Translations under genes and position numbers: made by a program
Origin: Albugo candida
Lineage: Eukaryota
Direction: 5' to 3'
Length of the DNA: 64,000 nucleotides
NCBI GenBank assembly: GCA_040437565.1
Contig: JBDOQK010000018.1
Span: 124,001 to 188,000, forward strand
The notes under the pieces: generated by a model
The model's database searches: none
Told to the model about the DNA's origin: nothing
What the model saw: the letters and a program-made list of their open reading frames with translations, nothing else
Shown here: positions 23,131 to 37,879 of the stretch, one piece after another
How the letters are laid out: every line of letters starts with the position of its first letter
Numbering within the stretch: the stretch's first letter is position 1

Positions 23131-24747
23131 TCACCAGATCGCAACGGAATTCTGAAGTCGAACAACTTCCTTGCGTGACAATACATTGCCGCTGATACCG
23201 CTTTGTTGTTGCGAAATTGTTTCTGCAACCAATTCTTCCCGAATGCTTGAAATTGAGTTCATCTCTTGCAAATACTTGTGATCGTGCCAACTCATTGCCG
23301 CATCATTCGCTTCGTCGTCGGATGCAAATTTGAGAGATTTGTGATGGTAACGTTTGCAATTGGCTGTAGCGGTCGTAATAACATCTTCAGCTTTTACACA
23401 GTTTTCGTCGCGCTTCCGTTTATAGCTCGTCGCTCTTGTGAAGATTGATTTTAAGAGTACGGATAAGGATCCTAGAGGACATGGAAACCAGGTGGAGAGA
23501 GACATCCAAACTTGGTTATTTTGTAAGAGTTGCTTCTGTTTGCGCTGCTTTATTCGCTGCAGAAACGGGTAGAGCTCATCCTGCATATTCTCTAATTTCT
23601 TCCGATGAGAATGGACTCGAATCGGTTTGCAAGCTTTGAGGATTTTATATAGCTGATTTAGTTCCGGTAGATGTACATCATTTGTAAGCTGCGCGTGATG
23701 GCACTGATGCTTCAGACTCACGAGAAGCTGAATTCCACATTGATACACACTCTCAATCGTATCCGAGCTGTACTTTTTGAGTCGTATGCTCCATTCTTGA
23801 CTAACGAGCAATGATATCCAGACTAGAATCGCACTCATCTCTTCTTTCACGTCTTCCAACTCTTTTAAAGTGTGATCAAACATCAGGTACACAAATCGAT
23901 CATAAAATCGCTCCAAAAGAGTAGAACTAAACTGTGAATAAATTCCTTGGAGTTTAAGTAACTCATCCAAAATCTTTCTTTCACATTCTGTCATAACGTG
24001 TTTTTTTCCAACTTTTGACGCTGTAAGCTGACACTTCCATAATGGTGTCCCATGCAACGGAATTCCGTACTGATTCCCGTCCACAAGCAATGGAACCAAA
24101 ATATTAGAAATCGCATGGGGCGACAGCTGATTATCCTTCGTGCCAATTCTATCCTTCACCGATGAAATCGACTGGGAGACATCCGACATTTGGTAAATAG
24201 AATTCGTCCAATGAGTCATGACTGCATGTACCGAGTCTTTCAAGATCGCAAATTGTCTTCCCCAATAATTCCTTTCCAGCCATGATAAAAGGTACGATGA
24301 GGCGAATTGCAACACAGGGAGCATTGGAAACTCATTGTGTGTAGACTCATGCCTCAAATCGACAATCCACAATGGAATTCCAATACGTTGAGCCAGCGTG
24401 CTTACAGCCATTGCAATGCTGTTTTTGTTTTGTATGCCGTCTACCAGTCCATTCACACATCGAACAATGACACAAGCATACATCATGCGAAGCTCTAGTT
24501 CTGAGCGCGTGCTTTGACCAATCTCCGAACACGCGCTGTGTGCGATCTGCTCGTGCAGTTCAATCTCGACCAATTTTGCCGTTGATTCGATAGATATCGG
24601 CAAGGAGGAGCGACTTCGCCATAATGCAATGCGTTCTAGACCAACTTGTCTCAAACACACATCGTCAGAATACACATTGTTATATACTTGCAGCCATTCT
24701 GACCAGTTATACCATGCGGCACAAGTCGATGCGTGATTGGATGACAT
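23131..24747 (-). CDS. LAS1: Las1-like pre-rRNA ITS2 endonuclease (HEPN)
   Basis: WYNWSEWLQVY, WRSRSSLPISIESTA, LRMMYACVIVRCVNGLVD, and IGIPLWIVDLRHESTH (HEPN RxxxxH motif). Confidence 0.9.
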   Translation of the reverse strand: MSSNHASTCAAWYNWSEWLQVYNNVYSDDVCLRQVGLERIALWRSRSSLPISIESTAKLVEIELHEQIAHSACSEIGQSTRSELELRMMYACVIVRCVNGLVDGIQNKNSIAMAVSTLAQRIGIPLWIVDLRHESTHNEFPMLPVLQFASSYLLSWLERNYWGRQFAILKDSVHAVMTHWTNSIYQMSDVSQSISSVKDRIGTKDNQLSPHAISNILVPLLVDGNQYGIPLHGTPLWKCQLTASKVGKKHVMTECERKILDELLKLQGIYSQFSSTLLERFYDRFVYLMFDHTLKELEDVKEEMSAILVWISLLVSQEWSIRLKKYSSDTIESVYQCGIQLLVSLKHQCHHAQLTNDVHLPELNQLYKILKACKPIRVHSHRKKLENMQDELYPFLQRIKQRKQKQLLQNNQVWMSLSTWFPCPLGSLSVLLKSIFTRATSYKRKRDENCVKAEDVITTATANCKRYHHKSLKFASDDEANDAAMSWHDHKYLQEMNSISSIREELVAETISQQQSGISGNVLSRKEVVRLQNSVAIW

Positions 24748-24780
24748 CCAAATGAATATTTGCCAATCATCGAGGTAAGC

Positions 24781-24890
24781 AATCTCTTGCAACATTCACC
24801 AAACGAAGCAATCAGCAACATTCACCAAACAAGATCTCATGCAACATTCAGCAAACGAGATCTCGTGCAACATTCACCGAGTGAAATCTT
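24781..24890. repeat. Tandem 26-bp repeat, about 4 copies (core GCAACATTCA)
   Basis: GCAACATTCA starts at 24789, 24815, 24841 and 24867. Confidence 0.9.
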
Positions 24891-24968
24891 GGTATACTTT
24901 ATATTCGATGCAGTATGAATCAATCCTTCCTAAGACTAATCACCAAGCGAGTCTACAGCCTCCTATGT

Positions 24969-26894
24969 TTATTTTTTTTTCAAGCTGATCGGCCGGATAC
25001 GACTGGGTAGTCGCTCTCTAACTGGCTTTGCTCGATACCATACAAATCCCACAATCAGCACGACATATGCCGCTAAAAACAAAATGACAATCTCGTGAAT
25101 ACCCAATGACAAATTCGCAGAACTATTTGGCCCCATAAAGTTTTTCTCTTCCAAAATGGTCTTGGCTTCAATCGAGAAAGCGATCGCTAGTTCCTCGATA
25201 GCGACATGTAAGGTCTCCTCAATTGGTACAATTCGAGTCGGAGCTCGTCCATCAGCAGACGCCGTTCCAATTTGATAGCAGCAATCCGGCATCAGGTGTA
25301 TGATTTGATGAACTCGATATAAACTTGGGTCAGCCTCCCAAGAGTACTCTTGGATGTGCGTGATAAGTCGGGTTTGCGAGGATGATCCATCCAGCTTGAT
25401 CGTATTACGATGGAAAAATATGTAATTGCCTTGTACATCGTGTTGAATCATCGCCAGTCCGCAGTATAGTTTCATATCTTCCATTAAAAGTCCTCCAACT
25501 GCTGGAGGATATGGAATGGTATATGAAGGCTGGCTTGTATTAAGCCATGCTAGCCGGAAAAGATCTTTATCCCCCCACAGGAGCGATAAATCTTCTAGTA
25601 CACGTGGCTCGTGTGTAGAATAAAACATCAGTTTCTCAAGGGCGGCCCTGCTTTTCTTCCGATTGATCAAAAGCTGACCACTTTCCTGTTCAAAACCTTC
25701 CCGATACTGGACACCAGTGATTTCCCATAACAGACTCGTTCGAGTAAGCTCAAATAATGAATTGGATGGCTGCCAGTAATCTGGCCAGAAAAGCGCTCCA
25801 GTTCGCACAAATTCTGGTTCTTGGAATAGATAGGTTGGATCCTTTGTAGGGATATTGTCACCATCCAGGAGCAGAACGTTGTCAAAATTACTATAATACA
25901 ATGCATACGGCTTGACATGAAATCCTTTGGCTCGTCGATCGAATATTGGACGCATTCGGACATTATATATCGTCAGCAGCTGATGGATAATTGGATTATC
26001 TATGGACATCTCGTCTGGACGGTACCACATCTCGATTGGTAATTCACAACCATGTAATCTCAACATCCGAACAGAAGCATACAAAGAGGGGAGAATTTTG
26101 TCATAAACGATCATGACAATTCCGTTTCGATCTTTGATTTCAGCATTCGAAGATAAAGCAAAAGATGGTGCAATTGGTCGATGTCGATATCGAACGGATT
26201 CGACTGCAAAATCTGAAGTCGTACGAGCTTGTTCGCAAGTATATGAACCTTTCGGAATTGAATCGCAAGTACTGACCATGAGCTTAAATTCTTGTCCAGA
26301 CGAACGATTGCGTACTGCACAATATCCTGCCATTCCTGGTCCGATGGCTGTCGAGCAGTTCAAAAAATTGGATTGTTTTTCTGGTGCATCTCTATTCTTC
26401 AGAACCGAGTACAATATAGGTGTTCGTGGTATGACAGCATACCCTTCGGGGTTGGCACTTTTTTCTGTAGGCTTATCATGACAGGTATACAGACGCTGCC
26501 AGCCGAGACAATCAAACGTCTCATCTGCCCAAATTTCTTGCACAATGTCGGCTTTGATATCACGTTCCTGTGACGGAGCCGAGTCAAGCGGTTCGGCTCT
26601 CCATTGTGAAGATAATGTATCAACGTGATTTATTATAATTTTTCCTGATTGCGCTTTTGATTCGATTAAGTGCGTATAATATTTTTTCGAAAGCCAAAGG
26701 CACAGTATGATGAGACCAACAGGCCATTTGCGGTGTTTTACAAAATTGTACACACGCAAGCATCGCTGCAGACACTGCGCACTGATCCGCTGGAAAAACA
26801 TCTTCATTGGAAATTGATGACCTTGGGTCAACTGACTCTGCTTCACTATGCTTTCCTTGATGGTTGTCTGAATGATATGCCGCTTTTGTTCCAA
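24969..26894 (-). CDS. GT71 alpha-mannosyltransferase-like glycosyltransferase
   Basis: N-terminal TM; LRLHGCELPIEMW, KPYAL, LLLDGDNIP (DxD), GALFWPDYW, EQESGQLLINR, WGDKDLFRLAW; C-terminal TM. Confidence 0.9.
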   Translation of the reverse strand: MEQKRHIIQTTIKESIVKQSQLTQGHQFPMKMFFQRISAQCLQRCLRVYNFVKHRKWPVGLIILCLWLSKKYYTHLIESKAQSGKIIINHVDTLSSQWRAEPLDSAPSQERDIKADIVQEIWADETFDCLGWQRLYTCHDKPTEKSANPEGYAVIPRTPILYSVLKNRDAPEKQSNFLNCSTAIGPGMAGYCAVRNRSSGQEFKLMVSTCDSIPKGSYTCEQARTTSDFAVESVRYRHRPIAPSFALSSNAEIKDRNGIVMIVYDKILPSLYASVRMLRLHGCELPIEMWYRPDEMSIDNPIIHQLLTIYNVRMRPIFDRRAKGFHVKPYALYYSNFDNVLLLDGDNIPTKDPTYLFQEPEFVRTGALFWPDYWQPSNSLFELTRTSLLWEITGVQYREGFEQESGQLLINRKKSRAALEKLMFYSTHEPRVLEDLSLLWGDKDLFRLAWLNTSQPSYTIPYPPAVGGLLMEDMKLYCGLAMIQHDVQGNYIFFHRNTIKLDGSSSQTRLITHIQEYSWEADPSLYRVHQIIHLMPDCCYQIGTASADGRAPTRIVPIEETLHVAIEELAIAFSIEAKTILEEKNFMGPNSSANLSLGIHEIVILFLAAYVVLIVGFVWYRAKPVRERLPSRIRPISLKKK

Positions 26895-27374
26895 TTCAGT
26901 TATACGGCTTACAAAAATAAGATTTCGTGCTCGCAGTCAAACACGAACAACTGCAGCATCGATTGACGCGGCCGTTAAAATCAATAACTGATACAAAGCT
27001 TCAGTGTCCGCGATCTGTCGCTCTAAATGCTGGATGAACTTTGTAGTTGTTGGAAAACGACAAAATGAGTACGAGAAGCAACTGAAACAAGTGAAATAGA
27101 ATTATTCAGAATGCGCGTGGTGGAGCAAGCCTTGGAAAAAGGTGCATGGGCACTATTTATATCAAAAAAGTAAAACGGATGGAGGTTTTCACCAGCAGAA
27201 CGAGAATGTGCGGATGGCAAGTATTCATTCCAAAAGTCTTTGCAACGGAAGCAATGGCGCACCACTTGCCTTTGGTCAAATTACGACTCTTTATGTGTAC
27301 AGTCTGCAAAGTCCGTATACAAATTCTCATATTTTTCTTGCATCGTTACTCTGCGAAATGAACGTCTTGATTGT

Positions 27375-29304
27375 TCATCTTTTTTCTTGTAGTTCTTGCA
27401 CTGTAATTCCTTTCGAAATTGCTGAAGCGGCTGCTCCAAACATTTCTTCTTTCTTGGACACGCTTAAATGAGATCGAGTAGGAGTCTGGCTGGATGGAGT
27501 CCGACGGACCCGGTTCACACGTTTCTCGCTATTTCGTTTCTTTGGAACCAATAAGGCGTTTTGACTTGGAGAACTTAGTATGTCACTTTGCTGTTGTTCA
27601 ACAACCGTGGCAAGTTGATGTTGATGAATCAGGGATCGAAGTGCTTGTCGCAAAGCCCATGTAAAATGCATCAATGTGACATATGGAACTGTCCATCGTG
27701 TGAATAGATACAAAATTAATACCAATAACAGATATTTGTTGGGTATCATCACATGTAACAAGCAACTTGCAATTAAACATAACAGTACTCTAGCCGTATA
27801 ACCGGAATCCTCCCATGAAAACATCATTTCAATACTGGAAATGATATGCGATATCCATGCCATATTGTTCTGCACAGACTGTAAAGAGTGCCGCGTCTCT
27901 TGATCGATGCTGACATGTGTCATTTTATTCATCAAATGCGTGAATCCAACCGGTAGACTATATTGCCGGAAATGGCCATTCGCGCCCGATAATTCTCCAC
28001 TAGTGGTCTCATCTTTTCCTTCGGCAAACGACTGCAAGTTGGACGCAAAATAATTTCTCAAAATCAATGCGATAAGTGCGATATGAATAACCACCGGAAC
28101 CCATTCTAATGATAAACACAGCCACACACAGAATCCGAAACACAGGCATGATCGGGTAGGATATTCCCAATTCAAGGTGGGAGAAACACGCCAAGCCACC
28201 TCCAAGTACGGCCAAAGGATATCCAATAGCACCCAAAAGTTACTATACAATCGCGCGGCCTGGAATTCGGGCCATTCATACACATATTGCTGTTCCGATG
28301 CAAAGTATGAGCAAAACTCAGCGGTACGAGAGAACTTGTAATGCAGTAAAACATGAATTCGACCAGCACGAGCATCGTTATTTAATCCAGCACGATGTAA
28401 TTTTTCGGGTAGTAGTAGATCGAGCCATTTGTTATGGCGCCTTTGATCCATCAACTCGCGTAATGCTATAGTTGCTTCGCCAAGTTTCGTTGGCTGACTC
28501 AGTTGCCCGTAATTATACACTTCAAACACCAATTCTGCTCCTGGAGCACATACATTGAACACAAAAGTCTCATGCCATCGCGGATTGAGCGTTCGAGATT
28601 TCTTTTTTGTGCATCGAACGCTCCGTAAATCACTTCCCCATTCCTGTCCATGAGACCATTTCCCAGTGAGAATGACACGCACAAAAGGATCACTCGTAAT
28701 TGAATCCGTCGACGGTAAGCCTATTGCTTCCACTACTTTTGCGTAAATCTGCCCAATATGCACCCGACCATCAATCACGGGATCTGGAGTAGTTGAAATC
28801 TGCAGATGCATTCTGTTGTCATATTTGCGATCGCAGCTTTATATAATCTGCCTACCTCCGTGGACGCTTGCCCTGACCACTCCAACGAGGCGAAATGCTC
28901 GTCAACAGCGGCGTAGCACGCATTGCAAACTCGCATCGGCTACTTATGAATGCAGGAATTGAGGTCAAAGTAAGTATTATGATGAATCGGCGTACAAGAG
29001 GATCTGTGGATGTGATGCGGCGCTCATGAGGTGAGCAATTATTGCAAATGACGTTCCCGCATCGGCGACAATGATGCTGCACAAACATGATATAAGTCCT
29101 TTGCGTCATTCAATGTAGTCGCCTTTGCTTACGCACTTTGCGTGTCAATAACGTGAAAGGGGTATTACAATGCATGCAATTTGACTTCTCGTCGTCTTGT
29201 ACCCAATTCAGCATACGATCATTATCACTCGAGGAGCTTGTGGTGCTAGTCTTTGACCGCGTGCGCAGCCCCGCTGATGGCAAAGAATCGAATAGAGAAG
29301 CCAT
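27375..29304 (-). CDS. FYVE + C2 domain membrane protein (MCTP-like C-terminus)
   Basis: FYVE WVQD..CMHC..FTLLTRK|HHCRRCGNVICNNC split by an intron; C2 domain SDPFV..TLNPRWHETFVF; C-terminal hydrophobic helices. Confidence 0.85.
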
Positions 29305-29364
29305 TTTTATTGTATGCAAAGAGCGAGGCGTTAGTTGGTCCTTAAATCGTGTACTACACATGAT

Positions 29365-30582
29365 TCAAGAATGGATGTCAGAGTGTTTGGTGAATACTTT
29401 GCCTGGAACGAAATTGAGCCTCGGTTTTGGTTTGTCTCTTTGAATGCACTGCTTGAATTCCAAATGCGCAGATTCCAAGGCTTGACGAAACAATTCGATC
29501 TGCTGGGCTACTCCCTCATCTTCTTCGTCCTCGAATTTTGATTCCTCAAAGATCACATTGGGATCCTGCCGTGCTAGTTCCATTTTTTTGACATCTTTCA
29601 GTGAGTGATTGACAGCGTCGCTCGTGTCCGACGTGGATGCATTTATCGAATCGGTCGACTGAACGTAGCTTGTTTTCGCTCGATTTTTCCTTTTCTTTTT
29701 TTTCTTCTTCCCTACGATGCTCATTGCTGTTGACGACACGGATGCTAAGCTTTGATCAGTTTGGTGAACGTCAGTCTTCCCGTTGATAAAGTCGACTAAC
29801 TCTTCGATACTTGGCTGATCAACTTGTTCGAGTTGGCTATCTACACCAGCAATATCTAATCCAAAAAGCTGGTCGGTCTCAGTCGTGAGGTTATCCAATT
29901 CAAATTCTTGTCGAATTTTATCAGATGCTCCTGTAGTCGACATAATCTGAGTTATAGCACGGCAGGTATCGTCAATCAAGGGCTGAATTTCGAGTTGCGA
30001 TGCAATCTGTTAAGCCAGATACATATTTACTGCCAGATCGACGTAGAAAACAGAAAACAGAACGCACCTACTTTTGCTAAATCACAAAGCGTCTTTGAGT
30101 CTAATCCATAGAATTCTTGTTTCCACAAGAGTAATGCATCATCATGACCTTCTATTTGAGCTTGATACAAGCAGCTATACACAAGGACACGGTCATTCGG
30201 TTTGGTACAAATGTATCGACATAACGTCTAAGGTACCTGCAATAATATAGAGCCAACTCAGCGCTATGACTCGGTACATCAAGCATGGGTACTCGATGTT
30301 CATGCAGAGCATTCTCGACAATTTCTTTTTCAAATGCTAGCAAAATGCTTTTAGCAGGGTAATTCAGTTTTAGACCAGCACTATACTTTGCATAAGCATC
30401 CACAAAGTGGGTGACATCATGGCTTCCTCGTGAGCGACTTGAACTTCTCTTCCTTCCATGCATTCTAATATGAATTGGAAGGCACCGCTTTTGGCATGTC
30501 CTTCACTGCCAAATGGGAGCATTTCGTTTTCGTGCCCATCATAGCGCTCCATGAAACTCTTAGAAGCTCCGATTTTGCTCAT
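29365..30582 (-). CDS. SKP1-like protein with C-terminal extension (type II, ASK20/ASK21-like)
   Basis: The 4-exon reconstruction gives ILECMEGREVQVAHEEAMMSPTL..LALYYC..WKQEFYGLDSKTLCDLAKIASQLEIQPLIDDTCRAITQIM..KIRQEFEL, then SIEELVDFING, poly-K and FEDEED..IELFRQAL. Confidence 0.8.
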
Positions 30583-32195: not shown

Positions 32196-35100
32196 ATGCC
32201 GAACGATGTTCCTCTCACACTAAAGGCCAGACTATCTCACACTCGATCGCGTAAACTTTGCACGTTTATAGGTGGATGCAAAAGGGTGGCTGTTACGAAA
32301 GGATTGTGCGTTCGGCACGGCGGCGGAAAAAAATGCATGTTACGCGATTGTAATAAAGGAGCCCAAGCCGGTGGGTATTGTCGGCAGCACGGAGGAGGAG
32401 CACGTTGCCAAATAGATGGGTGTAAAAAATTTGATGCTGGGAGGGGATTCTGTAGGGCTCACGGCGGCGGGAAACGTTGCCAAGAGAAAAACTGCGTGAA
32501 AGCCGATGTTGGAGGAGGGTATTGCACGGCTCACGGTGGTGGAAAGCGCTGTAGAATTACGGGATGCGTAAAAATAGCGCAAGAAGGCGGCAAATGTCGA
32601 GCGCACGGTGGTGTACGACGATGTCGTCATTCAGATTGTGCGAATCTAGCCAGAGGGCATAACGGATTTTGTAGCCAGCATGGAGGCGCTCAATTGTGTG
32701 CTTCGCGAGGGTGTCGAAGATTAGCAAAGGGTGGGACGAAACCTCTGTATTGTTTGAATTGTGTGGCCAAGTGTGACGGTGCAGTGAATCAAAATGGATT
32801 AGATGTGAGCTGGCTGGTAGATGCGATGGCTAGTAGCGACGAAGCTCAGAAAGAGATGGTACCAAAACTTGTAACAGGTGCAAAAAGCAGCAATAATTTA
32901 CACCACATGAATGGCCCAAGTCAGTCAATAACAACTTCACATTATTCCGCGCTGACCATATTAAGTGAAAGGGTTGAAAAGAAAAATTTGCCAGTTTGTT
33001 CGGAAGGGTTTCAAGCGATGGAAAGAGACGAGCAGAGTACAGCTGAGGATACAGGGGATTTGCTGGAAGATGATGGTGAGGATTTCTGCATTTCTCAAAC
33101 AGGTTCTTGTCTCCTGAATGGATGCGCGAAAAGCTTTGGTGGGAGTTGCAATTGTTCAGGAAAGTGTGAATGTTGCGCAACAACAAATGGAGAAGAGTAT
33201 TCAATCACTGGTCGGATTGAAAGAAAGTGTTGCAGTCAAAGTACGCACCGCTCCACCTTGACACAACCAAGTATAACAGAGAACCCAGTTGCCGCCGCAA
33301 ACATCACTTGTTGTGATAAAACGGATGGAATGACTATAAAACGAACCAANNNNNNNNNNNNNNNNNNNNNNNNNNNNNNNNNNNNNNNNNNNNNNNNNNN
33401 NNNNNNNNNNNNNNNNNNNNNNNNNNNNNNNNNNNNNNNNNNNNNNNNNATGCATGTTACGCGATTGTAATAAAGGAGCCCAAGCCGGTGGGTATTGTCG
33501 GCAGCACGGAGGAGGAGCACGTTGCCAAATAGATGGGTGTAAAAAATTTGATGCTGGGAGGGGATTCTGTAGGGCTCACGGCGGCGGGAAACGTTGCCAA
33601 GAGAAAAACTGCGTGAAAGCCGATGTTGGAGGAGGGTATTGCACGGCTCACGGTGGTGGAAAGCGCTGTAGAATTACGGGATGCGTAAAAATAGCGCAAG
33701 AAGGCGGCAAATGTCGAGCGCACGGTGGTGTACGACGATGTCGTCATTCAGATTGTGCGAATCTAGCCAGAGGGCATAACGGATTTTGTAGCCAGCATGG
33801 AGGCGCTCAATTGTGTGCTTCGCGAGGGTGTCGAAGATTAGCAAAGGGTGGGACGAAACCTCTGTATTGTTTGAATTGTGTGGCCAAGTGTGACGGTGCA
33901 GTGAATCAAAATGGATTAGATGTGAGCTGGCTGGTAGATGCGATGGCTAGTAGCGACGAAGCTCAGAAAGAGATGGTACCAAAACTTGTAACAGGTGCAA
34001 AAAGCAGCAATAATTTACACCACATGAATGGCCCAAGTCAGTCAATAACAACTTCACATTATTCCGCGCTGACCATATTAAGTGAAAGGGTTGAAAAGAA
34101 AAATTTGCCAGTTTGTTCGGAAGGGTTTCAAGCGATGGAAAGAGACGAGCAGAGTACAGCTGAGGATACAGGGGATTTGCTGGAAGATGATGGTGAGGAT
34201 TTCTGCATTTCTCAAACAGGTTCTTGTCTCCTGAATGGATGCGCGAAAAGCTTTGGTGGGAGTTGCAATTGTTCAGGAAAGTGTGAATGTTGCGCAACAA
34301 CAAATGGAGAAGAGTATTCAATCACTGGTCGGATTGAAAGAAAGTGTTGCAGTCAAAGTACGCACCGCTCCACCTTGACACAACCAAGTATAACAGAGAA
34401 CCCAGTTGCCGCCGCAAACATCACTTGTTGTGATAAAACGGATGGAATGACTATAAAACGAACCAAACTGAGGCTTGGTCTGCCGAAGAATTTGGTTTTA
34501 ACGAAAGTTGTGGCTTTGCTGAAAACCTTGTCAAATGTACGCAGCGTTCATGTTTTGACTGAATTCGGGCATGATAAGAATGGAGAAGATATGGCGATAG
34601 TCATGATAGTGGGAACAAGCTACCTTGATGTCACCGAACTGGAGCTTTTACGAACAGTATCCGGAACCAGAGACATGTATGCTATTCTTGAGCAATCCGA
34701 GATGCCGTGGTCACAACAAGAGATAATATTCTACATTCCGGAAATGATGTGTAAAAACGCCTGTGGAAATACAGTAATCAGTGCGATTCATTCGAGCAAT
34801 TTGCAGGAAAACCTTAATGGCGTTCAACTCGAATTTGAACAGCGATTAGTCATTTGTCGAGGCTATAATCTTCAGCCGGCCCAACTTCGCGAAACTATTC
34901 GTTTAGTCGGTTTCGAACCACAACTTAAGCAGGTAGCCCCGATACCAAAGGAATTTATGTTCCGAACTCGTGCATTTTTAGACCAAAAGACAAGCTGCAG
35001 ACTACGCGGTATTCTTGCTGATGTGGAAGGTGTGGAGCAGATTTCAGTGATGCACAGTTTTAAACGAGTTTTCGTGTCTGGCTTTATTGAATCGTCACAA

Positions 35101-35403
35101 AAGATCATCGACCACGCTGCAAATCATGACTTGAAATTGATCCTGACTGATACAGAGTCAGGACATGTCAGTCTCACTCACGAGATGGCTAACACGATCC
35201 ACTCCGCGCTCAATCACGAGTGCGACAATCAGACCTGCTCCCGTATTGGATGTGAGCAATATAGGGCGACAGTAGCTCATACAGCAGCTCTGGCTGCCGG
35301 GTGGATCGTTCCTGGGTGTGCGATGGTTTGGGGAGGCGAATGCACTTGTGGTGAGGACTGCAAGTGCAAAGGGTGTCCCAAACACGATCCAATCACATTC
35401 TGA
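32196..35403 (+). CDS. Cys/His finger repeat (WRKY19-like) + HMA domains + metallothionein-like Cys motifs, about 696 aa
   Basis: Six Cx4-5C..A..G.CxxHGG repeats, HMA motif MMCKNACG, C-terminal GCAMVWGGECTCGEDCKCKGCPKH. 32333-33349 is duplicated at 33450-34466 across a gap (artifact). Confidence 0.85.
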
Positions 35404-35703
35404 AGGTGGTCGATAATCACATAAAGTGAAGCGAGCCTCCGTGTACAGTTACCATGTGATGTCTGGTTCGATTATCTGAAAAGATACGTCATGGCGAGGA
35501 TCATGCAACATATGAGCGTAGTTTTAGAATTTGATCACCTTATTGGCTTCCGTCGATTAGGAACGACACGATGGGTCTACGTACTGCTTTTACATCTCCG
35601 TTGGCAAAGCTTCAATGATATCGAGTAGCTAATACATGTTAGGAGTCGTAGTGTATCACTGACACTCAACTTTGGGATACTTGAGTTAAACTTCAAGCAC
35701 ACA

Positions 35704-36991: not shown

Positions 36992-37879
36992 CTACTCGCG
37001 ACCTGAGGAATCATCATCTTGTCTCAGAAGCTCTTTCCCTAAACTATTTTGACTTTCCAAATACGGCAAAAATCGCATGCATGCACTCATGAGATTCATT
37101 CCCTCTTCATTGCAGTAGCAATCTGTCCATTGTTGCATACAGTGCTTACAAGTATCCACACTTATCTCGAGATCGCTTGGTGGAGTTGTATTTGATGCTT
37201 GAGCTTTATCAGTTGTTATTGATTCCTTTTTTTGGGTGTCACTTTCGGCTTTTGAGTTATTTGTAAGATATGAACACTTACTTGGCGTAACACTTGGAGC
37301 AGTAATTATCGGATTGGATAATTGCTTTATATTTTCAATCTGTAGAAAAGATTGTAGAACATGGGCCTGAATAAAAGAATTCGCCTGCTGGCAATGATGA
37401 AAGTGATTACCAAGTATTCGTAACAATAGATGACGTAAGAACAGCCCAAGTGAGTCAATTCGGTCTCTCACAGTGTTGTGCTGATTGGAGCGGAATAATC
37501 GACGACGTGGAAATGGATAATCTGCAATCTCATACAAGTAATGCTGACAATGTTCACAGTGTCCGGATGATACATGATTAATCAATTGTTTGCGAAGTCG
37601 ATAAAAGTCCGAATATCTTCGTCTGACGATAAATTTTGTACCACTTTTATGATTCCTTACGACAATAGTGTACACAGTACATGGCCGCGAGCGGCTCGAA
37701 ACAACTGCAGGAAAGCGTTTGGAAATACATTTGGATCCGTCACAAGTTGTTGACACAGCCGAGTTGTGTTCTCTTATAGAGCATGGCCGAGTTTGTTCCT
37801 CTAGGAAGTTTGGGTCGTCCACTTGAAAATGTTCTTTGACCGCAGTAATGACAACCGAAAGAGAATCTTCATCAATCAT
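36992..37879 (-). CDS. PX domain protein
   Basis: VYTIVV...VRRRYSDFYRLRKQL...FPRRRLF...RIDSLGLFLRHLL. Confidence 0.85.
   Translation of the reverse strand: MIDEDSLSVVITAVKEHFQVDDPNFLEEQTRPCSIREHNSAVSTTCDGSKCISKRFPAVVSSRSRPCTVYTIVVRNHKSGTKFIVRRRYSDFYRLRKQLINHVSSGHCEHCQHYLYEIADYPFPRRRLFRSNQHNTVRDRIDSLGLFLRHLLLRILGNHFHHCQQANSFIQAHVLQSFLQIENIKQLSNPIITAPSVTPSKCSYLTNNSKAESDTQKKESITTDKAQASNTTPPSDLEISVDTCKHCMQQWTDCYCNEEGMNLMSACMRFLPYLESQNSLGKELLRQDDDSSGRE

Follow-up and report, generated by a model that had tools for sequence, protein, structure and literature searches.

Candidate metal-sensing regulator of Albugo candida combining WRKY19-type zinc fingers, HMA-fold units and cysteine modules

A 696-residue protein with a predicted metal-binding cassette

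We analysed a 64,000-nucleotide (nt) stretch of Albugo candida DNA (NCBI GenBank assembly GCA_040437565.1, contig JBDOQK010000018.1, positions 124,001 to 188,000, forward strand), hereafter the window, and report on a single forward-strand gene within it (32196-35403), whose 696-residue product joins an array of WRKY19-type zinc fingers to three units with the fold of heavy-metal-associated (HMA) domains and to two cysteine modules. The protein is likely to bind metal, the metal is probably copper, and we tentatively propose for it the role of a soluble metal-sensing regulator inside the cell; the weakest step in this proposal is that the protein would regulate genes by binding nucleic acid. 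What is new here is a candidate copper-sensing regulator of the known Cys-cluster kind in which Zf_WRKY19 fingers, HMA units and Cys modules are combined, and of which we infer the regulatory half. The first-pass annotation, made from the sequence alone, had not recognised this architecture as a characterised one, and the literature searched likewise held no description of it or of PITG_02325 (supplementary tables of copper-stress studies, which may list homologues, lay outside its scope), nor of gene-regulatory copper sensing in oomycetes, brown algae or diatoms.

Metal binding by the cassette, as predicted from sequence, is well supported because an HMA domain whose two loop Cys are invariant stands together with two homologous Cys/His modules and the combination is kept from oomycetes to brown algae. 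Cu(I) is favoured because the spacing of the modules matches one described for Cu(I) sensing.

HMA-fold units and cysteine modules

Three ferredoxin-like HMA units had been annotated, the middle one with a loop of the MxCxxC type. Using AlphaFold2 (AF2) we found the beta-alpha-beta-beta-alpha-beta topology in all three, with predicted local distance difference test (pLDDT) scores above 90 for units 2 and 3. Foldseek placed tandem HMA domains best (CopA, 5.9e-7; ATP7B domains 3-4 and 5-6) and returned single-HMA matches to MerP (template modelling score (TM) 0.85, root-mean-square deviation 1.7 A), PacS, HMA7 and domain I of the copper chaperone for SOD1 (CCS), and its list also held RRM and ACT proteins, which have the same general fold. 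Structure prediction thus agreed with an HMA fold for all three units, whereas by sequence only the middle unit is recognisable as HMA. Pfam HMA (PF00403) was matched in 23 of the 27 aligned orthologues (best 1.3e-9), and a profile of 27 sequences gave 36 matches in the PDB at E≤1, every one an HMA-type domain or a protein containing one (MerP 1osd, E 9.9e-8; CopA, CopZ, Atx1, ATP7A/B, ZntA, mercuric reductase and plant HIPP), and all at profile positions ~426-546, which correspond to unit 2. When the units were compared with each other using hhalign, unit 2 aligned with unit 3 (86%, E 5e-6, 65 columns) and, in part, with unit 1 (56%, E 1e-4), while units 1 and 3 scored 4%; unit 3 is therefore a degenerate HMA duplicate, and unit 1 is HMA-like mainly by its fold.

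The annotated MMCKNACG is present in unit 2, but its assignment to the MxCxxC type did not hold, since the loop, M-M-C-x3-C-G, is one residue longer than MxCxxC (MTCSAC in MerP) in the HMMER alignment. MMCxxxC occurs in all 27 orthologues and canonical MxCxxC at that loop in none of them. The protein contains a divergent HMA domain, which has the fold and a family-level sequence match but not the canonical GMxCxxC loop, and the Cys pair is missing from units 1 and 3.

The central Cys cluster reported in the first pass was confirmed at residues 309-327 (GCAKSFGGSCNC...CECC), inside the acidic linker, which in its 181 residues has 25 D+E, 14 K+R and 38 S+T. The module to which it belongs, module 1, was found in 24 of the 27 orthologues and is missing from both Aphanomyces sequences and from P0009. 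Module 2 (GCAMVWGGECTCGEDCKCKGCPKH, residues 668-691) ends in a Cx2H that module 1 does not have, and its pattern CxCx3-4CxCx2Cx2H is kept in 26 of 27 orthologues, the exception being Hyaloperonospora, where F replaces one Cys. Aligned with hhalign, the two modules matched over GC-x7-CxCx3CxC (probability 94.3%, E 9.8e-8, 21 columns) and, judged from this alignment, are a true internal repeat, as had been proposed for the C-terminal and central clusters. The Cys motifs vary little or not at all across the 27 orthologues. The highest Kyte-Doolittle mean over 19 residues, 1.52, falls on the conserved tail helix (residues 648-661 in the AF2 model), which is not a clear membrane helix.

The zinc-finger array and its paralogue PiLLP

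A regular-expression search located six CCCH units of the form C-x4/5-C-x9/10-C-x2-H with GG after them (starting at residues 22, 47, 71, 95, 119 and 143); a seventh unit of C4 type (C168, C173, C186 and C189) follows, in line with the six CxxxxC..CxxHGG repeats and additional C4 unit first described. Pfam assigned the array to Zf_WRKY19 (PF24906, profile length 24 residues) at 102 bits against a gathering score of 27 (E 1.4e-29, six stretches) and placed no other family on the window protein at E≤1. The protein is a bona fide member of the Zf_WRKY19 family, whose profile all 27 orthologues match, and among these the finger Cys/His columns are invariant or at least 90% conserved. Residues 1-195 are strongly basic (39 K+R and 9 D+E, a net charge of about +30), residues 1-199 modelled alone from 33 sequences reached an AF2 pLDDT of 84.6, and in some orthologues a K/R cluster directly precedes finger 1. 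A basic finger array followed by an acidic disordered linker is a layout resembling that of a transcription factor.

Among oomycete proteins with these fingers, the literature searched held a functional study of one only, Phytophthora infestans PiLLP ('loricrin-like protein', PITG_15862; P0293 in our searches), whose Zf_WRKY19 array is 47% identical over 81% of the finger region. Unlike the window protein, it has 308 residues and consists of fingers only, with no HMA domain and no Cys modules. According to the available part of that study, the HGGG repeats of PiLLP were taken by the authors as glycine-rich repeats of a wall protein, the phenotypes relate to oospores, tolerance of H2O2 and transcripts of catalase, and silencing lowered both catalase transcripts and H2O2 tolerance (PMC5298957). 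PiLLP carries PF24906, and the HGGG with which its CCCH fingers end accounts for the 'GGX repeats', so that its reading as a glycine-rich protein may need revisiting.

Zf_WRKY19 proteins P0191, P0199, P0203 and P0211 are labelled 'Zetaproteobacteria bacterium', from a metagenome-assembled genome, and three of them lie on one 15,459-nt contig. They are probably eukaryotic contamination of the bin; were the label real, this would be an unexpected bacterial occurrence of the finger.

Distribution of the architecture

With the 649-residue piece of the protein as query, 324 of 8000 candidate proteins matched at E≤0.001. Full-length relatives, with 29-64% identity over 96-100% of the query, comprise at least 24 orthologues from many genera, including Albugo laibachii (64%), Pythium, Globisporangium, many Phytophthora species, Bremia, Plasmopara and Nothophytophthora; coverage for Hyaloperonospora was 61% in the best local alignment. 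Other searches also found relatives in Lagenidium, Peronospora, Aphanomyces and Saprolegnia, so that several oomycete orders are represented. Precomputed annotation gave both PF24906 and PF00403 for 17 of the 120 matches listed, the named ones all being oomycetes, and there is apparently one family protein per species among the matches examined. Plant proteins named 'loricrin-like' or 'WRKY19-like' share the fingers only (~20% coverage), and finger-only proteins are very numerous, with 967 matches among shorter proteins.

When the full library was searched with the 69-residue tail (phmmer), 43 matches reached E≤0.001, of which ~17 span the whole tail (oomycete-type orthologues) and the others the module only. 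Pfam, run on 33 of the 43, found HMA in 11, Zf_WRKY19 with HMA in 3, sub-threshold metallothionein in 4 and no family in 18. Named matches came from the brown algae Ectocarpus siliculosus (CBN79244.1; P0158) and Laminaria digitata (P0153), from Discosporangium mesarthrocarpum and from the diatom Leptocylindrus danicus. The Ectocarpus and Laminaria homologues have the same order of fingers (47-51% identity), HMA domain with an MMCxxNCG loop (MMCMENCG), hydrophobic helix and module (GCAMAWGxxCxCGDDCxCxNCPQH; in Ectocarpus 48% identical over 44 residues), but they show one Pfam HMA, a central module is not evident and the linker is long and of low complexity. The search for this domain order beyond Albugo was therefore positive across oomycetes and in brown algae, and the architecture is not oomycete-specific, contrary to the first-pass view. 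The Ectocarpus protein is named 'putative copper transporter', a name that is annotation only, its top three 19-residue hydropathy windows being at most 1.34. In the available part of an Ectocarpus copper-stress paper only a P1B ATPase is mentioned (PMC4108028).

In the diatom proteins P0141, P0143 and P0139 the N-terminal region is a different one, and an HMA-like segment accompanies two modules that are 56-59% identical to those of the window protein. This family, which includes diatom and unnamed marine proteins, is conserved in its N-terminal region ('YEPLPR.GLAHP...LTTLRTWWQHRR') and in a 'SIDWENMEDFDVNVDHS' motif that lies between the two GC-x7-CxCx3CxCx2CPxH modules. Pfam at E≤10 on P0143, P0141 and P0166 gave a weak HMA match on P0143 (E 0.012) as its sole hit, a PDB phmmer search with P0143 gave weak HMA matches only, and the ESM Atlas gave no usable match to the diatom N-terminal region (P0143 residues 95-215). 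This region might be a putative DNA-binding domain, and one idea is that its 'TWWQHRR' stretch is homeodomain-like. The occurrence of module and HMA behind different N termini suggests a portable sensing cassette.

Four small proteins (P0138, P0146, P0147 and P0151; 94-152 residues) hold little beyond one or two copies of the Cys module, and may be stand-alone stramenopile metallothionein-like proteins or fragments. The short C-terminal-only entries P0121, P0128 and P0129 look truncated because the P0128 cluster includes a 673-residue member.

Comparison with known metal-binding systems

Cuf1 and Mac1 carry near their C termini the motif Cys-X-Cys-X(3/4)-Cys-X-Cys-X2-Cys-X2-His, which senses and coordinates copper according to the available part of PMC3338643, and the available part of PMC6473158 describes C-terminal Cys-rich motifs of Mac1 homologues as copper-sensing. 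In the window protein, C677-H691 reproduces this copper-sensing motif of Schizosaccharomyces pombe Cuf1 and Saccharomyces cerevisiae Mac1 with exactly the X3 spacing of Cuf1, and the pattern fits 26 of the 27 orthologues, which upholds the likeness of the C-terminal motif to those of copper-fist factors seen in the first-pass annotation. The layout is alike as well, with an N-terminal Zn-dependent basic domain, an acidic middle and a C-terminal sensor. Furthermore, Mac1 has two Cys-rich repeats, as the window protein has two modules. However, module 1 is without the final Cx2H and the likeness to Mac1 and Cuf1 is at the level of motifs only; the copper-fist domain is absent from the window protein, whose fingers are of the unrelated Zf_WRKY19 type; and we know of no HMA-fold units in Mac1 or Cuf1, whereas the window protein has three. 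By analogy, then, the protein would work most like Mac1 and Cuf1 without belonging to their family. Two further transcription factors, CRR1 of Chlamydomonas and MTF-1 of Drosophila, likewise have at the C terminus a Cys-rich cluster of metallothionein-like character that contributes to copper sensing; their DNA-binding domains (SBP and C2H2, respectively) are unlike the fingers described here, and neither is known to have an HMA domain.

HMA metallochaperones and the N-terminal domains of P1B ATPases (MerP, CopZ, Atx1, CopA and ATP7A/B) share with the protein the fold, the tandem arrangement (as in CopA and ATP7B) and a Cys pair between strand 1 and helix 1. They differ from it in that its MMCxxxCG loop is one residue longer than GMxCxxC, two of its three units are Cys-less and the ATPase or membrane part is absent. 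Compared with the beta domain of vertebrate metallothionein, module 2 has fewer Cys and a terminal His, and it sits in a multidomain protein.

Several assignments were considered and rejected. Membership of the copper-fist family (Mac1, Cuf1 and Ace1) is ruled out by the absence of the copper-fist domain, which was found neither in the window protein (Pfam, E≤1) nor in the 27 orthologues (E≤0.1) nor in the 33 of 43 phmmer tail matches that were scanned. A metallothionein (PF00131/PF01439) was rejected on the ground that matches are sub-threshold only (one of 27 orthologues, E 0.023; metallothionein-1, E 1.5) in a multidomain protein of 696 residues, and a P1B copper ATPase or transporter, the label of the Ectocarpus homologue, on the ground that there is no ATPase Pfam match and the hydropathy maximum is 1.52. 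With CCS the Foldseek matches concern domain I only and there is no SOD-like Pfam match, while an effector is ruled out by an N terminus that is not signal-peptide-like and by the presence of the family in free-living brown algae.

Proposed function and alternative explanations

In the mechanism that we propose, the CxxxC loop of the HMA domain would receive Cu(I), with an Atx1-type chaperone as a possible donor, and Cu(I) would form thiolate clusters in both Cys modules. Folding of these otherwise disordered segments could then alter the exposure of the acidic linker and the finger array, and the change in exposure would switch what the protein does to its targets, the most likely effect being on the transcription of metal-homeostasis genes. 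Such a scheme would follow the logic of Mac1 and Cuf1, with an unrelated targeting domain. A regulator is suggested by the order of a basic array of fingers, a disordered acidic middle part and a sensor at the C terminus, which resembles the layout of those two factors, and by the diatom cassette, which stands behind a different N terminus, as expected of a portable sensor. The K/R cluster before finger 1 of some orthologues is consistent with such a role, as is the fall in catalase transcripts on PiLLP silencing, given in the available part of PMC5298957.

A number of observations weigh against this reading. The first-pass annotation had proposed a sensor that couples metal binding to putative nucleic-acid-binding fingers, and while the HMA Cys pair and the Cys modules speak for the metal-binding part, the finger model gave no DNA-binding fold counterpart. 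Foldseek found no significant match to it in the PDB (best E 2.2), and a wide VIA search gave 10 chains with Z≥2 and 0 with Z≥5, residues before ~146 being barely covered; the best match (Z 3.1), confined to the seventh unit (residues 164-197), was a ubiquitin-binding finger of the A20 type. We know of no nucleic-acid binding by Zf_WRKY19 fingers, and no stretch of 7 residues in the window protein itself contains a cluster of 5 K/R. In Thraustotheca (P0027) and Achlya (P0033) an array of the same fingers is joined to RING domains, P0033 also having a Rad60-SLD/SUMO-like domain (precomputed Pfam), and these fusions hint that the fingers may be able to target ubiquitin or SUMO enzymes. PiLLP-mRFP was seen in the cytoplasm and the oogonial wall, nuclei not being reported in the available part of the paper, and the asexual-stage result was uninformative according to its authors (PMC5298957).

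On the metal-binding side, Pfam HMA has no match in the window protein itself at E≤1, and we know of no characterised metal site with the CxxxC spacing of the loop. The tail was modelled at low pLDDT, which would be expected if its fold were metal-dependent but does not speak for such a fold. In addition, the segment P-x-C-x4-GG-x-CxCx3CxCx2C of module 2 gives a gap-free alignment with the metallothionein-1 beta domain (E 1.5, not significant), a likeness that leaves room for a buffer role and for binding of Zn or Cd. None of the genomic neighbours (23131-29943 and 36992-37879) has a metal-related Pfam domain.

Such a role would make the protein a metallochaperone, buffer or trafficking scaffold, in which the HMA domain and modules would keep Cu(I) or Zn(II) in store or pass it on, the fingers are structural or serve protein-protein contacts and there is no gene-regulatory output. 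HMA domains are characteristically found in chaperones and at the N termini of P1B ATPases, the alignment of the module with the metallothionein-1 beta domain is position by position, sub-threshold Pfam Metallothio matches occur in one of 27 orthologues and 4 of 33 module-bearing proteins, and small one- or two-module proteins exist; furthermore, the finger-RING fusions would suit a protein-targeting role, with which the weak A20-finger likeness agrees. We none-the-less consider this explanation unlikely, in that a buffer has no need of seven conserved basic fingers and a long acidic linker, the entire architecture is kept from oomycetes to brown algae, and two modules and one Cys-bearing HMA per 696 residues amount to a low storage capacity. 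A sensor of the same type for Zn(II), Cd(II) or another thiophilic metal would be compatible with the HMA relatives, which include ZntA, a cadmium ATPase and MerP, with a loop that differs from the Cu-typical MxCxxC, and with metallothionein beta domains, which bind Zn and Cd as well as Cu. Against this, the terminal pattern, His included, is that of the motif with which Cuf1 and Mac1 are described as sensing copper, as far as the available source goes, and copper proteins form the majority of the profile matches, so that copper being the wrong metal in an otherwise correct scheme is quite unlikely.

It is more doubtful still that the Cys modules and the CxxxC loop are thiol switches of a redox or oxidative-stress sensor, acting through disulphide formation or Zn release and not as sensors of copper supply, because the HMA fold and the spacing of Cuf1/Mac1 and metallothionein type point to metal thiolate clusters. 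The protein has 49 Cys in 696 residues and the CxxxC loop is non-canonical, as such a sensor might be expected to show, and the lowered catalase transcripts and H2O2 tolerance after silencing of the finger-only paralogue PiLLP (available part of PMC5298957) would fit it, but those data come from a protein without the entire C-terminal cassette. Finally, the long open reading frame (ORF) could be an artefact in which a finger gene and an HMA gene are read through or mis-assembled, and both the gap and duplication inside it and the short C-terminal-only entries could be taken that way. However, an identical uninterrupted 696-residue ORF is found in other assemblies, at least 24 orthologues share the domain order over 96-100% of the query, as do brown algae, and the short forms look truncated, which makes an artefact highly improbable.

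If the reading as a metal-sensing regulator is extended beyond this one protein, stramenopiles could own an undescribed class of copper regulators, a more speculative idea that we regard as doubtful. A portable cassette (the CxxxC-loop HMA with one to three GC-x7-CxCx3CxCx2CPxH modules) would predate the split of oomycetes and ochrophytes and would be joined to WRKY19-type fingers in oomycetes and brown algae or to another conserved N-terminal region in diatoms, the oomycete protein serving as a master copper-homeostasis factor in the role of Mac1, Cuf1 or Ace1. The family is in any case a concrete, highly conserved candidate for gene-level copper sensing in stramenopiles. Were the regulator proposal true, it would give a first functional context to the widespread, unexplained WRKY19-type finger array of plants and stramenopiles and to the HMA variant with a CxxxC loop, and since copper compounds are used against oomycete diseases, a pathogen copper-response circuit would be of applied relevance. 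A chaperone or buffer would still be a new HMA architecture, of modest interest.

Gene structure and genomic context

The gene lies in the window as two ORF pieces in the same direction (32196-33349 and 33454-35403; Table 1). The 696-residue protein P0001, known from independent assemblies, contains both, its residues 1-384 being the first piece and its residues 48-696 the second (100% identity), so the single ORF of about 696 residues expected in the first pass once the duplication at the gap is removed proved exact. This 1017-nt duplication is an assembly artefact because the window has 15 gaps, each of exactly 100 N and spread over 1376-63065, which mark it as a scaffolded draft. The remaining gaps may hide further artefactual duplications that split or lengthen ORFs.

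Table 1. Features of the gene and its product, with positions in the window
Feature	Residues	Position	Strand	Basis and remarks
5' ORF part	1-384 and part of codon 385	32196..33349	+	Start ATG at 32196; ends at gap; translation equals P0001 1-384
Zinc-finger array	22-189	32259..32762	+	Six CCCH units of ~24 residues and seventh C4 unit; PF24906
Disordered acidic Ser/Thr-rich linker	196-376	32781..33323	+	pLDDT <50; composition
Cys module 1	305-327	33108..33176	+	C-x4-C-x7-CxCx3CxCC; duplicate copy at 34225-34293
Scaffold gap, 100 N		33350..33449		N-run listing
Exact copy (1017 nt) of 32333-33349		33450..34466	+	Outside the true gene; duplication missing from P0001 (696 residues)
3' ORF part		34467..35403	+	Resumes from 33349; stop codon 35401-35403
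Ferredoxin-like unit 1	379-466	34447..34710	+	HMA fold without metal-binding Cys; AF2 pLDDT 83-93
Ferredoxin-like unit 2	468-543	34714..34941	+	Sequence-detectable HMA; loop MMCKNACG at 34744-34767 (C480, C484)
Ferredoxin-like unit 3	546-611	34948..35145	+	Degenerate HMA duplicate without Cys; AF2, hhalign
Tail	635-667	35215..35313	+	Conserved H635-x-C637, C642, C647 and Y650; invariant hydrophobic helix AHTAALAxGW
Cys module 2	668-691	35314..35385	+	GC-x7-CxCx3CxCx2Cx2H; pattern search; same module in brown-algal and diatom proteins

The neighbouring ORFs, all on the reverse strand, encode a Las1-like protein (23131-24795), a putative mannosyltransferase (24969-26807), a C2-domain protein (27375-28811) and a PX-domain protein (36992-37879), and these genes gave no clue to function. 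Positions 33451-35600 are contiguous in contigs of three public runs, X1 and X6 (2434 nt each) and X10 (36671 nt); these contigs show contiguity only. Compared with the window, the 36.7-kb X10 contig has five single-base differences in the gene (33933, 34734, 34815, 35238 and 35241) and no insertions or deletions, which looks like strain-level variation in a conserved ORF.

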